In this document: piece after piece, positions 17,752 to 23,670 of the stretch | Layout of the letters: each line of letters begins with the position of its first letter | Numbering within the stretch: position 1 is the first letter of the stretch | Source: Actinomycetes bacterium | Lineage (GTDB): Bacteria; Actinomycetota; Coriobacteriia; Anaerosomatales; Anaerosomataceae | Reading direction: 5' to 3' | NCBI GenBank assembly: GCA_021373175.1 | Contig: JAJFTE010000004.1 | Coordinates: 19,588 to 43,587 of the forward strand | Length of the DNA: 24,000 nt | The notes under the pieces: generated by a model | Told to the model about the DNA's origin: nothing | What the model saw: only the letters and a program-made list of their open reading frames with translations | Database searches by the model: none | Translations under genes and position numbers: made by a program

Positions 17752-18948
17752 TCACAGCGGCAGGTCGAAGATCCTCCACGTCTTGTACCGATGGCCGCCC
17801 ATGAACTCCGATGCTCGCAGGACGAGGTCGTTGTCCTCAAGCAGCATGGAGATGTCACAGGTGGTGTACCCGCGAGTGTTCGCGTACTCGTGAATCTCTT
17901 TGAACAGCAGTGCATCCACACCGCTTCGACGGTGTCCTGGAACGATGCCGAAGAACATCAGGCGCACCCGGGGTATGTGGCGCCGCATCAAGAGCAAGCG
18001 CGCAAGGCGCACGGCGTCGCTATCGCCGTACCACTTCCAGCGCGGTCTCAGGGCCCAGTTCGGGTCGGGGAACGTGCCGAGAACGGCCACCGGCTCGCCG
18101 TCGATGAACGCGAAACGGACGAGCCCCGGATCGATGATCGGCTTCAGACTCTCGGCAAGCGCGTCGGCTTCCTCCTCGGTGATAGGAAGGAAACCCCAGT
18201 TGTCGGCCCACGCCTGGTTGTAGAGGCTGATGACGAGCCGGATGTCTTCGACGAACCGGGACATCTCCACCGGTCGTGTCGTGATGTTCCGGCGCGCCTG
18301 GGCGAGTTCGGCGATCTGCGTAATCCGCTCGGATGAGGGCTTGGTCAGATCAAGCAGGTAGGCGTGGTAGTCCTTCGCTTTTTGAAGGCCGTAACGCTCG
18401 AAAAACTCGCGGTAGTAGGGCGGGTTGTGCGTGAGCTCGACGGCCGGCGGTGTGTCGAAGCCGTCGATGAGGCACGCCTGGCGCTCATGCGTGGCGTTAC
18501 CGTATTCCCCCGGGCCGCGCATCGTGTCCATGCCCTGCGCCTTGATCCAGTCGCGGGCGGCGTCCAGTAGTGCGGCGGCGGCCTCGTAGTCCTCTTCGAC
18601 CTCGAAGAACCCGAAGTTCCCGATCTTTGAGCCGTAGTACTCATTGTAGCGGCGGTTCACGACGGCCGAGATGCGGCCCACCGGCCGGTCGTCCCGATAC
18701 GCCATGAAGTGCGTCGCCGAGGCGGTCTTGTGGTAGGGGTTCTCGGGGGTGAGCAGCCCGATGGTTCCAAGCAGCTTGTTGCCGAGCAGGTCCGCGTTGA
18801 GCTGCGGCGTCCAGAACGGATCGCCCTTGTACAGACGCCAGTGGAAGGCGACGAAGTCTTTGATGCGCGGATCGCCGAGCGGAATCTCCACGATCCGAGG
18901 AGCGGGACGGTTCCCGCTTGTCTGGGCGAAATGCTCGGTTTGCGGCAT
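17752..18948 (-). CDS. GNAT-like acyl/acetyltransferase-fold protein of unknown substrate (~399 aa)
   Basis: The C-terminal GIVPGHRRSGVDALLFKEIHEYA...DISMLLEDNDLVLRASEFMGG..YKTWRIFDLPL resembles the GNAT acyl-CoA-binding motif plus a terminal strand. The N-terminal half (FGFFEVEEDYEAAAALLDAARDWIKAQG..MRGP) looks like a second degenerate GNAT lobe. Preferred start is ATG 18948 (MPQTEHF). The extension to 19098 is low-complexity. Confidence 0.6.
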   Translation of the reverse strand: MPQTEHFAQTSGNRPAPRIVEIPLGDPRIKDFVAFHWRLYKGDPFWTPQLNADLLGNKLLGTIGLLTPENPYHKTASATHFMAYRDDRPVGRISAVVNRRYNEYYGSKIGNFGFFEVEEDYEAAAALLDAARDWIKAQGMDTMRGPGEYGNATHERQACLIDGFDTPPAVELTHNPPYYREFFERYGLQKAKDYHAYLLDLTKPSSERITQIAELAQARRNITTRPVEMSRFVEDIRLVISLYNQAWADNWGFLPITEEEADALAESLKPIIDPGLVRFAFIDGEPVAVLGTFPDPNWALRPRWKWYGDSDAVRLARLLLMRRHIPRVRLMFFGIVPGHRRSGVDALLFKEIHEYANTRGYTTCDISMLLEDNDLVLRASEFMGGHRYKTWRIFDLPL

Positions 18949-19082
18949 GGTGATGTGGCGCGCCTCCTCGGTCGTGCGGTTCTCCTCGAAAGAAATGAGC
19001 GTAGCAGAAGACGCGCCGTGTCGCATGAGGGGACTGCTACACTTGGTTGTGCGCGTGGGGCTCCGGGAGAGAACAGGTTCGC

Positions 19083-19973
19083 GTGGACTTCGAGTCACTG
19101 GCCAACAGCAGAGCAGGCATCGAGCTTGCGCTTGGCGTGAGCCGTGCGACGCCGCCGTTCATCGGTCACGCCGTCGCCCGTCTCGCAGCGCACAGGTTGG
19201 CGGCTGACCGTGATTCCGCGATGGTCCGGGCGATTCGCGGTAACCAGTGGATGAGTTCGGGCATGACACTCACCGGCCCCGCGCTCGACGCTGCGGTTGA
19301 AGAGACGCTCGCGATGAGCGGACGGTTCCTCTACGACATCTATCACCTGCCGAGACGCCCCAAAGCGCTTCTGGCCAAAGTGGCGATTGACGAGACGGCA
19401 GAGCGGTTTGTTCGCGCGTCGGCAGAGGGGCCGCGAGTGATCGCTGTCGTGCACCTCAGCAACTTCGACCTGGTAGGGCGGGCGCTTGGCTTGTCGGGCT
19501 GGCAGGTCCAGGTGCTTTCAATCGCGAACCCGAATGGCGGGTACGAGGCGCAAAACGAGATGCGCACCGCGAGCGGACTTGAGGTGACGCCGGTCTCGAT
19601 GGAGTCGCTCAAGCGGGCCAGCCGACGGTTGGCAGATGGCGGCTCGGTACTCACGGGCATCGATCGCCCGCTTCCCGGTGCCGACCTGCGTCCCCGATTC
19701 TTCGGCCGTCCGGCACCGTTGCCGGTACTGCACGTGCGCCTCGCGATGCGCGCGAAGGCTCCGGTCGTTGTAGCTTCGGGAATCCTGCGCGAGGATGGGC
19801 GCTACGCCCTGCAGGCCTTCGAGCCCATTCAGATGGAGGGGTCGGTCAAGAACGAAGCGGACGTTCTCGCGAACGCGGAACGCGTGCTGCGCTTCGCCGA
19901 GGAGTTCATCACCCAGTCACCCCGGCAGTGGGCGATGCCCCATGCGGTGTGGCCCGATATATCGGCACCCTAG
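19083..19973 (+). CDS. LpxL/HtrB (lipid A biosynthesis acyltransferase, PatA-like) family lysophospholipid/glycolipid acyltransferase
   Basis: The layout ..RLAAHRLAADRDSAMVRAIRGNQ.. then VIAVVHLSNFDLVGRAL (the H-x4-D/E catalytic region), ..GGSVLTGIDRP.. and PAPLPVLHVRLAMRAKAPVV matches this acyltransferase family by eye. Start is uncertain: GTG 19083 (GGGAGAG 11 nt upstream) or TTG 19047. Confidence 0.68.
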   Translation: MDFESLANSRAGIELALGVSRATPPFIGHAVARLAAHRLAADRDSAMVRAIRGNQWMSSGMTLTGPALDAAVEETLAMSGRFLYDIYHLPRRPKALLAKVAIDETAERFVRASAEGPRVIAVVHLSNFDLVGRALGLSGWQVQVLSIANPNGGYEAQNEMRTASGLEVTPVSMESLKRASRRLADGGSVLTGIDRPLPGADLRPRFFGRPAPLPVLHVRLAMRAKAPVVVASGILREDGRYALQAFEPIQMEGSVKNEADVLANAERVLRFAEEFITQSPRQWAMPHAVWPDISAP

Positions 19974-22479: not shown

Positions 22480-22482
22480 CCG

Positions 22483-23670
22483 CTAGGACAGCACGCCGAG
22501 TTCGTGCCCGATCCTCTCGAACGCCGAGAGGACGAAGTCCATCTGCGCTTCGGTATGGGTCGCCATGTACGACGTCCGCAGGAGCGCTCGTCCCGCCGGT
22601 ACCGCGGGCGGACGGACCGGGTTCACGAACACTCCCGCATCCAGCAGCCGACGCCAGAACTCGAAGACGAGCATCTCGTCGCCCAGGATGATCGGGATGA
22701 CCGGCGTCTCGCTCGCACCGGTGTTGAATCCCATGCGGCGGTACTCGGACTGCATTCGGCGCACTGTCTTCCAGAGGCGCTCGCGGTGCTCGGGCTCGGT
22801 CTCTATCACATCGAGCGCGCCCAGGCACGCGCCCACGCTCGCAGGCGTCATTGCCGCCGAGAAGATGAACGGGCGTGAGTTGTGCCGGATGTAATCGATG
22901 ACAGCGGCGTCGCCCGCGATGAACCCGCCCAGCGAAGCGAAGCTTTTGCTGAACGTACTCATGATGAGATCGACGTCTTCAGTCACGCCGAAGTGCGCGG
23001 GGGTGCCTTCGCCGTGCGGACCCAACACGCCGCTCGCGTGCGCGTCGTCCACCATGAGCCGCGCACCGAACTCCTTGCATAGCGCGACCATTTCCGGCAG
23101 CCGGGCGACGTCGCCTTCCATGCTGAAGACACCGTCGGTCACAACGAGTACGCCGCCGTGTTCAGTTTTCACCGAGGCGAGCGTCTCACGCAAGCTGTTC
23201 ATATCGTTGTGCTCGTAGCGAACGACCTTGCCGTAGCTGAGCTTGCAGCCGTCATAGATGCTCGCGTGGTCGTCCTTGTCGATGACAGCGGTGTCATGTC
23301 TGCCTACGAGCGCCGAGATGGTGCCCAGGTTCGTCTGGAAGCCGGTGGAGAAGACGAGCACATCCTCTTTATGCACGAAGGTCGCAAGGCGTGCTTCCAA
23401 CTCCTCATGGATGCTGAAGTTCCCGTTTAGGAGGCGCGAGCCGCTGCAGCTGGGTCCGAACGCGTCAAGCGCCCGGCGCGCCCTCTCGCGAACATGCGGG
23501 TGCGTGGTGAGACCCAGATAGTTGTTGGAGCCGAGCATCACCAGATCGCGTCCGCCGATACGGACCTTGGAGTCGGACTCCGATTCGATCACCTGGAAGT
23601 ACGGGTAATACCCGGCCTGCTTTGCGAGTGTCGGTTCGATGTAATCGCGGCACTTCTGGAAGAGATCCAT
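22483..23670 (-). CDS. PLP-dependent alpha-oxoamine synthase, serine palmitoyltransferase (SPT)-like subgroup
   Basis: YPYFQVIE...LVMLGSNNYLGLTTHP, DDHASIYDGC, YEHNDM, TDGVFSMEGD, MVDDAHASGVLG, DLIMSTFSKSFASLGGFI (PLP-Lys in TFSKS, as in bacterial SPTs rather than the TLGKA of BioF/KBL/ALAS) and FVNPVRPPAVPAGRALLRTSYMATHT. ATG 23670 (MDLFQK..) follows GAGGGGTGG. Confidence 0.82.
   Translation of the reverse strand: MDLFQKCRDYIEPTLAKQAGYYPYFQVIESESDSKVRIGGRDLVMLGSNNYLGLTTHPHVRERARRALDAFGPSCSGSRLLNGNFSIHEELEARLATFVHKEDVLVFSTGFQTNLGTISALVGRHDTAVIDKDDHASIYDGCKLSYGKVVRYEHNDMNSLRETLASVKTEHGGVLVVTDGVFSMEGDVARLPEMVALCKEFGARLMVDDAHASGVLGPHGEGTPAHFGVTEDVDLIMSTFSKSFASLGGFIAGDAAVIDYIRHNSRPFIFSAAMTPASVGACLGALDVIETEPEHRERLWKTVRRMQSEYRRMGFNTGASETPVIPIILGDEMLVFEFWRRLLDAGVFVNPVRPPAVPAGRALLRTSYMATHTEAQMDFVLSAFERIGHELGVLS

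Follow-up and report, generated by a model that had tools for sequence, protein, structure and literature searches.

The bacterial Spt-bCerS-CerR pathway has been described in Caulobacter (CC_1162/CC_1154/CC_1164), E. coli B (Spt/YghO) and B. fragilis, and as three-gene operons in Rubrobacter and Streptomyces, and the bCerS enzymes of B. fragilis and Caulobacter have been genetically validated. Like these systems, the window (the whole 24,000-nucleotide stretch of DNA analyzed here) carries an SPT-type alpha-oxoamine synthase (AOS) and a YghO/bCerS-family tandem-GNAT N-acyltransferase in one locus, a pairing found across phyla, and both enzymes are of the soluble type. Unlike them, the window locus has no CerR, AcpR or AasR, and its two genes do not form one operon but lie on opposite strands with four other genes between them. 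We think it rather likely that this uncultured, anaerobic actinobacterium of environmental origin, from the Coriobacteriia/Anaerosomatales group, uses the locus to make a ceramide-type sphingolipid backbone de novo and to decorate it. The assignment as a ceramide-backbone locus is well supported, and the intervening acyltransferase and CDP-alcohol transferase are a plausible candidate module for phospho-head-group addition and acylation.

Coordinates were taken from the ORF listing and the public gene calls on contig JBFOMV010001926.1 (GCA_040961035.1), and the five genes named in the first-pass annotation are intact, with positions and spacings as it had given them. The tandem-GNAT gene occupies 17752-18948 on the minus strand (398 aa), with a longer public call that uses an upstream ATG as start and runs to 19026 (424 aa). 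A divergent intergenic region at 18949-19082 (134 bp, or 56 bp under the longer gene call) separates it from the acyltransferase operon; no consensus promoter was detected in this region, which may serve as a control region common to both divergent genes. The plus-strand trio proposed earlier is present, consisting of an LpxL/HtrB-family (PF03279) lipid acyltransferase at 19083-19973 (296 aa), a CDP-alcohol phosphotransferase of an uncharacterized subfamily of about 220 aa that begins 31 bp later at 20005-20676 (223 aa), and an RssA-like patatin-like phospholipase a further 4 bp downstream at 20681-21550 (289 aa). Pfam backs the domain assignments of these three proteins, the AOS and the GNAT protein.

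The tandem-GNAT protein had been singled out earlier as a "double-GNAT" protein to be compared with bCerS, and full-length BLASTP places it in the bCerS/YghO family, with 28% identity to E. coli YghO (E 5e-47), 32% to the protein of the cerS-position gene of a Roseomonas sphingolipid cluster (E 1e-51) and 34% to a Rubrobacter Spt-operon protein (E 5e-56). YghO is given as a homolog of CC_1154 (cerS), the Caulobacter bacterial ceramide synthase (PMC9386255), and the window protein is homologous to the products of the middle genes in the Spt-CerS-CerR operons of Rubrobacter and Streptomyces. Pfam returned weak matches to both Acetyltransf_1 and Acetyltransf_6, and a Foldseek search of the PDB with the AF2 model (pLDDT 86.9) recovered tandem-GNAT proteins, FemX and the MprF C-terminal domain. 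Homologs adjoin an SPT-like gene in loci from Planctomycetota, Spirochaetia, Oligoflexia, Mucilaginibacter and Anaerolineae, and SPT and bCerS homologs are neighbors in at least six phyla. Homology and cross-phylum synteny make a strong case for this protein as a candidate bacterial ceramide synthase.

Each of the three intervening enzymes retains its catalytic motifs in orthologs. The acyltransferase matches Pfam Lip_A_acyltrans at 55.5 bits (cut-off 22.3), keeps the HX4D motif HLSNFD in 12/12 orthologs, and has as its top NCBIfam model the PIM acyltransferase (56 bits; cut-off 209) and as its top PDB match PatA (E 0.002). The CDP-alcohol transferase (Pfam CDP-OH_P_transf, PF01066, 31.9 bits) belongs to a family of 261 clusters at 50% identity (E<=1e-30), and its motif DSLDGTLAR-x9-G-x3-D-x3-D (D78, D81, G82, A85, R86, G96, D100 and D104) is invariant in all 16 orthologs. 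In a profile search its nearest relatives of solved structure were human CEPT1 and CHPT1 (E 2.4e-11), and it matched neither the PIPS, PgsA and PssA structures nor the PIPSynth model; its top NCBIfam model is archaetidylinositol-phosphate synthase (51 bits; cut-off 180). It looks more like the Kennedy-type CEPT/CHPT enzymes than like PI-phosphate synthases. The patatin scores 109 bits with Pfam and 154 bits with NCBIfam RssA (cut-off 272), and its GTSMG and GSGSARG motifs are each kept in 16/17 orthologs; linkage of a patatin to the CDP-alcohol transferase was not found outside the clade, and the patatin is a clade-specific component. A further plus-strand gene at 21850-22479, unnamed in the first-pass annotation, encodes MEM209, a clade-restricted six-helix membrane protein of 209 aa. 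MEM209 matched nothing in Pfam, NCBIfam or the PDB sequences, and Foldseek comparison of its AF2 model (pLDDT 85.2) with the PDB gave nothing better than E 0.4; only 170 homologs were found, all in Coriobacteriia/Anaerosomatales MAGs.

Across the clade the genes are conserved together. SPT, MEM209, patatin, CDP-alcohol transferase, LpxL-type acyltransferase and bCerS are syntenic in 19/19 related loci, except that the patatin is missing from one (L012; 18/19). The arrangement is no chance juxtaposition: it recurs in all 17 genome loci and in both metagenome loci. The acyltransferase/transferase module has been retained between cerS and spt while the clade SPT sequences diverged to 73-76% identity; among 63 SPT-anchored loci outside the clade it occurs in none. 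Four clade loci (L002-L005) carry an 8-kb insertion of signaling genes that splits the trio from SPT; this, like the absence of the module outside the clade, counts against a link between the trio and sphingolipids. MEM209 adjoins the AOS in all 19 loci, including those with the insertion.

The AOS gene (22483-23670, minus strand, 395 aa) converges on MEM209 at a distance of 3 bp, and its product matches Pfam Aminotran_1_2 at 198 bits. Many of its relatives are publicly annotated as "8-amino-7-oxononanoate synthase", and the AOS could on that basis be a housekeeping BioF or KBL accompanied by an unrelated acetyltransferase, a reading we consider very improbable. NCBIfam ranks the SPT model of the CFB type (517 bits) and SPT-beta (418) above the Kbl-related (406), bioF (395) and KBL (386) models, and among PDB structures the Sphingobacterium (S. 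multivorum) SPT (419 bits) leads the best non-SPT enzyme (324) by 95 bits. In an NJ tree E. coli B Spt and S. multivorum SPT bracket the clade that holds the AOS, with Kbl and BioF outside (93/100); the sister of the AOS is a Chloroflexota clade (81/100) whose members have CerR or CerS next door, and the AOS is nearest the Bacteroidota/Chloroflexota type of SPT and not the actinobacterial operon type. Among 80 relatives examined, bCerS or CerR homologs adjoin the AOS and biotin or threonine(-dehydrogenase) genes do not, the neighbors that the first-pass annotation had named as grounds for rejecting its proposal. Scores, tree and neighboring genes all contradict a BioF or KBL identity. It is also improbable, if less so, that the AOS acts on cysteate, alanine or glycine and, with the N-acyltransferase, yields a sulfonolipid, a 1-deoxy-sphingoid or another N-acyl aminolipid. 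This would agree with scores below the curated cut-off of every SPT equivalog model (517 versus 640; 418 versus 500), which count against an SPT assignment, with a cysteate-C-fatty acyltransferase as a fairly close solved relative (287 bits), and with 1-deoxyceramides reported from anaerobic bacteria in a Black Sea study (PMC11334938). However, SPT structures score 130 bits above the cysteate enzyme, in the tree the AOS has validated SPTs on either side, and around the PLP lysine it carries the SPT-type motifs TFSKSFASLGGF and GSRLLNG common to validated SPTs. The homology is strong evidence that the AOS is a serine palmitoyltransferase-type enzyme.

A more serious alternative, possible but clearly less probable than the reading we favor, is that SPT and bCerS make ceramide while the acyltransferase, CDP-alcohol transferase and patatin between them form an independent glycerolipid module for an acylated PI-like, PG-like or Kennedy-type phospholipid. 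The acyltransferase/transferase pair is a widespread, portable two-gene module: an acyltransferase homolog lies directly upstream of the transferase in 36 of the 52 metagenome loci that reach far enough upstream to tell. The GC contents range from 0.43 to 0.68, and mostly neither SPT nor CerS is close by. Of the CDP-alcohol-transferase loci, 26 extend for at least 3 kb in each direction; only 3 of these contain a sphingolipid gene, two of them from the window's own clade, and the module therefore need not be sphingolipid-specific. Its neighbors elsewhere include an HAD phosphatase, GtrA, a GT4 glycosyltransferase and a metallophosphoesterase, which recall PI/PIM and Bacteroides inositol-lipid clusters (PMC9246714); the top NCBIfam models of the pair and the 8-kb separation in L002-L005 point the same way. 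Against this stand the retention of the module between cerS and spt across the clade, the failure to match PI-phosphate synthase models and structures, and the lack of a glycosyltransferase or inositol-phosphate synthase in the window. Moreover, members of the same transferase subfamily (42-61% identity) lie directly beside sphingolipid genes, independently, in several unrelated lineages and in at least three other contexts: cerR-acp-spt-CDPOH in L155, whose Spt shares 47% identity with that of E. coli; cerS-CDPOH in L145 and L156, with cerS 47-50% identical to YghO; and AT-CDPOH-cerS-like (L090 and L119) or CDPOH-cerS-like (L092) arrangements.

In the sphingolipid pathway we favor, the AOS would convert serine and an acyl thioester to 3-ketosphinganine, which the tandem-GNAT protein would N-acylate as a bacterial ceramide synthase, with MEM209 as a possible clade-specific SPT partner. 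Decoration of the product most likely falls to the intervening genes: the CEPT-like phosphotransferase could attach a phospho-alcohol head group at the C1 hydroxyl, with a soluble CDP-alcohol or a CDP-activated lipid as donor, its constant partner, the LpxL-type acyltransferase, could by chemistry typical of its family add a further ester-linked acyl chain to a hydroxy-acyl chain or the head group, and the patatin could deacylate or remodel the lipid. This whole decoration step we infer from conserved synteny and family chemistry. Counting against the scheme, no clade member encodes CerR, a dedicated ACP or an acyl-ACP synthetase within 10 kb of these genes, and the locus holds no cytidylyltransferase for a CDP-alcohol donor; keto-reduction must either depend on a gene in another part of the genome or be missing. 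The literature searched yielded no lipid data for this lineage. An SPT and a bCerS flanking an uncharacterized acyltransferase/head-group transferase pair offer a lead to sphingolipid decoration in such anaerobic bacteria.

The first-pass annotation had proposed a polar-lipid pathway and likened its acyltransferase/transferase pair to part of the actinobacterial PI/PIM locus. Its core of SPT, bCerS and co-conservation survives the tests that could have refuted it, and the PI/PIM analogy proves weak. As in pgsA1-patA-pimA, a CDP-alcohol transferase sits beside a PF03279 acyltransferase whose top-scoring characterized relative is PatA, but the gene order is reversed, no GT4 follows, no PI-phosphate synthase match was obtained, and the acyltransferase falls far below the PatA model cut-off (56 versus 209). 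Among solved structures, only the Kennedy-type choline/ethanolamine phosphotransferases CEPT1 and CHPT1 show detectable similarity to the window transferase. The match spans residues 9-189 and includes the N-terminal segment, but at 47 bits it is weak; the bacterial protein has half their length, and the window has no nearby cytidylyltransferase to form a CDP-alcohol. The insect ceramide phosphoethanolamine synthase belongs to the same superfamily as these two enzymes.

Unlike Caulobacter, the window has no ceramide kinase, CDP-DAG-synthase-like gene, nucleotidyltransferase or LptFG paralogs, and BLAST detects no similarity between its transferase and a CC_1159-like protein from Roseomonas (L083, 359 aa). 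CC_1159 is a CDP-alcohol-type enzyme that participates in Caulobacter phosphosphingolipid synthesis, and the Caulobacter CPG/CPG2 head-group genes (CC_1158-CC_1161, CC_1152/1153) likewise set a CDP-alcohol-family transferase among sphingolipid genes (PMC11324152), presumably reflecting phospho-head-group chemistry in both Caulobacter and the window.

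Both our list of ORFs and the publicly available gene calls agreed with the five-gene layout that the first-pass annotation had drawn at 17752-23670. They place a GNAT-like protein of 398 aa at 17752-18948 (-). On the + strand follow an acyltransferase (19083-19973), a CDP-alcohol transferase 31 bp further on (20005-20676) and, 4 bp after that, a patatin (20681-21550). An alpha-oxoamine synthase (AOS) of 395 aa lies at 22483-23670 (-), and the stretch also holds a 209-aa membrane protein at 21850-22479 (+). Pfam agreed with the four domain families named, and the catalytic motifs are intact and conserved among orthologues. 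The window's closest relatives are environmental Coriobacteriia/Anaerosomatales MAGs, including HGW-Actinobacteria-1, HGW-Actinobacteria-6 and EMTCatB1. When loci were anchored on the AOS (76-88% identity), the AOS, membrane protein, patatin, transferase, acyltransferase and GNAT genes kept their order and orientation, within contig reach, in 17 of 17 genomes of this clade, and two further metagenome loci kept the identical gene set and order. The set whose synteny had been singled out for checking is therefore conserved as a whole, with two exceptions: one clade genome (L012) is missing the patatin, and in the four nearest relatives of the window (L002-L005) an insertion of 8 kb, absent from the window itself, separates the membrane protein gene from the patatin. 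This insertion (L002:12416-19669; also in L003-L005) contains genes for a response-regulator/T2SSE-type ATPase, for an Hpt protein and for a hybrid histidine kinase of 1426 aa that has GAF and PAS domains. A promoter and terminator scan of the locus gave nothing informative.

Several comparisons identify the AOS as a serine palmitoyltransferase (SPT)-type enzyme that lies closer to validated SPTs than to BioF, KBL, ALAS or CqsA. Among NCBIfam models it scored highest against SPT-CFB (Bacteroidota type, 517 bits), followed by SPT-beta (beta-proteobacterial, 418), a Kbl-related model (406), bioF (395) and KBL (386), and among PDB structures the Sphingobacterium multivorum SPT (SmSPT) gave 419 bits versus 324 for the best non-SPT, 287 for cysteate acyltransferase, 279 for KBL and 217 for BioF. 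Yet the AOS stayed below every SPT equivalog cut-off (517 versus 640 for CFB, 418 versus 500 for beta and 337 versus 670 for alpha) and below the NCBIfam cut-offs of all other AOS models; because it reaches no curated cut-off, it represents an SPT-like lineage outside the curated equivalogs. In a neighbour-joining tree of 44 sequences with 100 bootstraps, the AOS fell within a clade bracketed by E. coli B Spt (PMC9386255) and S. multivorum SPT, both experimentally studied, with E. coli Kbl and BioF outside it (93/100), and the window's own AOS clade was sister to a Chloroflexota clade (81/100). The segment TFSKSFASLGGF around the PLP lysine, as well as DHAS, DDAH, GSRLLNG and LLRTS, aligned with SmSPT and E. 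coli Spt, and the PLP-lysine region differed from those of both Kbl (TLGKALGG) and BioF (TFGKGFG). The possibility that the AOS is a BioF or KBL, which would have undone the proposal, is rejected on the NCBIfam and PDB rankings, the tree and these motifs, and no biotin or threonine genes stand beside the AOS relatives in any of 80 cases. Homologues of bacterial ceramide synthase (bCerS) share the locus with the AOS in 19 of 19 clade loci and adjoin AOS relatives in five other phyla, and a homologue of ceramide reductase (CerR) follows the SPT-like gene in six Anaerolineae loci, other than those with bCerS.

We then compared the GNAT protein with the bCerS family, to which the first-pass annotation had suggested it might belong, and found full-length homology together with a tandem-GNAT fold. 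Its AF2 model (pLDDT 86.9) has two GNAT domains, and Foldseek matched it to tandem-GNAT proteins at E 1e-12 to 1e-10, as well as to FemX and the MprF C-terminal domain. The protein aligned end to end with E. coli YghO (28% identity, E 5e-47), with the Roseomonas protein at the cerS position (32%, E 1e-51) and with the middle gene of the Rubrobacter Spt-CerS-CerR operon (34%, E 5e-56), and a relative used as tblastn query against plasmid records retrieved E. coli yghO and the Roseomonas gene. Homologues adjoin an SPT-like gene in Planctomycetota, Spirochaetia, Oligoflexia, Mucilaginibacter and seven Anaerolineae loci. Published work lists "aca: CC_1154, yghO ECD_02850" as homologous acyl-CoA N-acyltransferases required for dihydroceramide (PMC9386255); CC_1154/CCNA_01212 is identified as bCerS in other papers, and a B. 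fragilis knockout has been described. In E. coli the gene order is lptF-lptG / Spt-ACP-epimerase-fatty acyl-AMP ligase / yghO. Each feature described in print for the Caulobacter CC_1152-CC_1161 sphingolipid region (PMC11324152) has its counterpart in the Roseomonas locus, where the GNAT homologue takes the cerS position, with LptF/G paralogues on one side and a nucleotidyltransferase on the other. The bCerS link rests on YghO, with its published homology to CC_1154, and on cluster synteny. Together, homology and cross-phylum synteny make the predicted SPT and ceramide synthase pair well supported at this locus. In E. coli PN43 (NZ_MG591698.1), yghO lies in a Caulobacter-like sphingolipid cluster that adjoins glcC and has an epimerase-type reductase; such a yghO cluster was previously described for E. 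coli B (PMC9386255). In several database records, cerS-position homologues are labelled "dATP pyrophosphohydrolase".

When CerR proteins (NAD-dependent epimerase/dehydratase type) from E. coli, Rubrobacter and Streptomyces served as tblastn queries, neither the window nor the 10-kb surroundings in 17 clade loci gave a match, and homologues of AcpR or a dedicated ACP, and of AasR or acyl-ACP synthetase, are absent from the same regions, so that the reductase and ACP search named by the first-pass annotation came back empty over this range. In two Actinomycetota, Rubrobacter and Streptomyces, we found a three-gene Spt-CerS-CerR operon. These operons are compact and lie on plasmids (Rubrobacter radiotolerans plasmid 1 and a plasmid of Streptomyces sp. 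NBC_01001), the former with a downstream protein of the LTA-synthase family that might act as a head-group transferase, and the latter with a downstream condensation-domain protein. Ceramides have reportedly been found in Streptomyces. The assignment of the locus to a ceramide backbone, as predicted by homology, is solid, and it is to be expected because Spt-like genes are reported in about 40 phyla (PMC11334938).

Between the GNAT and AOS genes lies the trio of acyltransferase, transferase and patatin. The CDP-alcohol transferase matched PF01066 (31.9 bits versus a cut-off of 22), and its DX2DGX2AR...GX3DX3D motif is complete and invariant in 16 of 16 orthologues. The acyltransferase matched PF03279 (LpxL/HtrB; 55.5 bits versus 22.3), with its HX4D motif, HLSNFD, conserved in 12 of 12 orthologues. 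The patatin matched PF01734 (109 bits versus 27.7), with GTSMG and GSGSARG in 16 of 17 and DGF present. One reading, which follows the first-pass analogy to pgsA1-patA, is that the acyltransferase/transferase pair belongs to a PI/PIM pathway (PgsA1-PatA-PimA), and PatA is indeed the nearest characterised relative of the acyltransferase. However, the PatA model scored only 56 versus a cut-off of 209, the transferase matched neither PIPS model (NF045883, PIPSynth, and NF052561) at E<=10, none of the PIPS, PgsA or PssA structures was matched by sequence or profile search, no GT4 gene is adjacent and the window holds no glycosyltransferase. On these grounds we reject a PI/PIM pair, and the analogy is weak. 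The only solved relatives of the transferase are human CEPT1 and CHPT1, through a weak profile match (E 2.4e-11, 47 bits), and its top NCBIfam model is archaetidylinositol-phosphate synthase, at 51 bits versus a cut-off of 180. No homology was detectable with the Caulobacter-type CC_1159-like transferase of Roseomonas, and the locus encodes no cytidylyltransferase partner.

To place the pair more widely, we scanned metagenomes with the window's transferase as anchor, obtaining 80 loci at 42-70% identity. An acyltransferase homologue lay directly upstream of the transferase in 36 of the 52 loci with enough sequence, and the two genes are therefore a conserved module. Among the 26 loci whose two flanks each extended for 3 kb or more, only 3 held a sphingolipid gene, two of these three belonging to the window's clade. 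Other recurrent neighbours of the transferase were ABC ATPase, HAD phosphatase, class II aldolase, GtrA, metallophosphoesterase, GT4 (in only 4 loci) and SDR genes. At E<=1e-30 the transferase family falls into 261 clusters (50% identity), with rare fusions to GtrA, VTT/DedA and Ser/Thr kinase domains; neither fusion partners nor conserved neighbours identified its substrate. Transferases of this subfamily adjoin sphingolipid genes in other lineages too: one locus (L155) has the order obg-proB-cerR-(PycTM)-acp-spt-transferase, its Spt sharing 47% identity with E. coli Spt; two (L145 and L156) have cerS-transferase, the cerS product sharing 47-50% identity with YghO; two (L090 and L119) have acyltransferase-transferase-cerS-like; and one (L092) has transferase-cerS-like. 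The module is thus a portable one with no obligatory tie to sphingolipid genes, though it has come to stand beside spt or cerS repeatedly. The first of these loci is a proteobacterial-type sphingolipid cluster in which a Pycsar effector (PycTM) gene (L155:7508-8050, -), read from the other strand, separates cerR from acp-spt.

The six-helix, 209-aa membrane protein at 21850-22479 adjoins the SPT gene in every clade member (L002-L018, L088 and L089), and its 170 homologues are confined to Anaerosomatales/Coriobacteriia MAGs. It had no match in Pfam or NCBIfam, a profile search against the PDB returned nothing, and its confident AF2 model found no Foldseek PDB match better than E 0.4. A faint Cytochrom_C_asm match (E 0.59) in only two orthologues fits the eye-read WGGxLWxEPRL and does not count as evidence; three relatives carry DUF998. 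The motif W104-G-G-x-x-W109-x-E-P-R-L is invariant, and H46, N53, D144, N160 and H163 stand alongside it.

Sequence and structure comparison places at this locus an SPT-type AOS, a bCerS-family N-acyltransferase, intact motifs in the trio and conserved synteny, and from these we infer a series of reaction steps. The SPT would condense serine and an acyl thioester to 3-ketosphinganine, which the GNAT protein would then N-acylate, an acylation-before-reduction order of the kind proposed for Caulobacter (PMC11087976). The transferase might next put a phospho-alcohol on C1. The LpxL-type enzyme could attach an ester-linked acyl chain, acyloxyacyl formation being typical chemistry of this family (LpxL/LpxM), with sugar acylation, as by PatA, likewise possible, and the patatin may deacylate or remodel the lipid. 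The first-pass annotation had proposed a sphingolipid-like or otherwise non-canonical acylated phospholipid. We extend this to a fuller but improbable reading, in which the acyltransferase and the ~220-aa CEPT-like transferase would form a phosphosphingolipid module that decorates (keto)dihydroceramide with a phospho-alcohol head group and one more acyl chain. In the monoderm anaerobic Anaerosomatales the module would act with SPT, bCerS, patatin and the clade-specific membrane protein of unmatched fold, without a canonical CerR, and would yield an acylated phosphosphingolipid not described before. As a candidate head-group system, the acyltransferase/transferase module makes an attractive lead.

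The rest of the window, 99-17643, holds an anaerobe-style gene mix: an aldehyde:ferredoxin oxidoreductase (99-1610), a B12-binding radical SAM protein (2180-3607), a multihaem cytochrome c (3604-4170), cytochrome bd oxidase CydAB (4779-7151), RpiA, AhpC/TSA and an ABC1/UbiB-type kinase (8643-10334), a PadR regulator (10501-11169), an M6/InhA-like protease (11281-13662), an AI-2E transporter and a transketolase (15643-17643). Divergent from the SPT gene is a cobalamin riboswitch (Rfam RF00174, 82 bits) at 23784-23917 (+), with promoter-like hexamers at 23746-23775; downstream of it on the contig lie a BtuF-like binding protein, a FecCD permease, an ABC ATPase and CobA/CobO.

Bacterial ceramide synthesis by Spt, bCerS and CerR was elucidated only recently, and to our knowledge phospho-head-group enzymes for bacterial ceramides are known or proposed in only a few lineages. 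This locus puts the SPT-bCerS pair, with no adjacent CerR, in Coriobacteriia-group Actinomycetota of anaerobic subsurface and sediment; our literature search found no sphingolipid report for the Coriobacteriia group and none linking SPT to Coriobacteriia. The widespread two-gene module and the new membrane protein are candidates for sphingolipid head-group and acyl decoration, and if this lineage makes sphingolipids, that would bear on the interpretation of sphingolipid biomarkers from anoxic environments. The SPT-bCerS pair adds a new member to the known bacterial ceramide pathway. However, its layout is split and divergent, the locus lacks CerR, ACP and AasR, and it has embedded acyltransferase, CDP-alcohol transferase and patatin genes and a new membrane protein.
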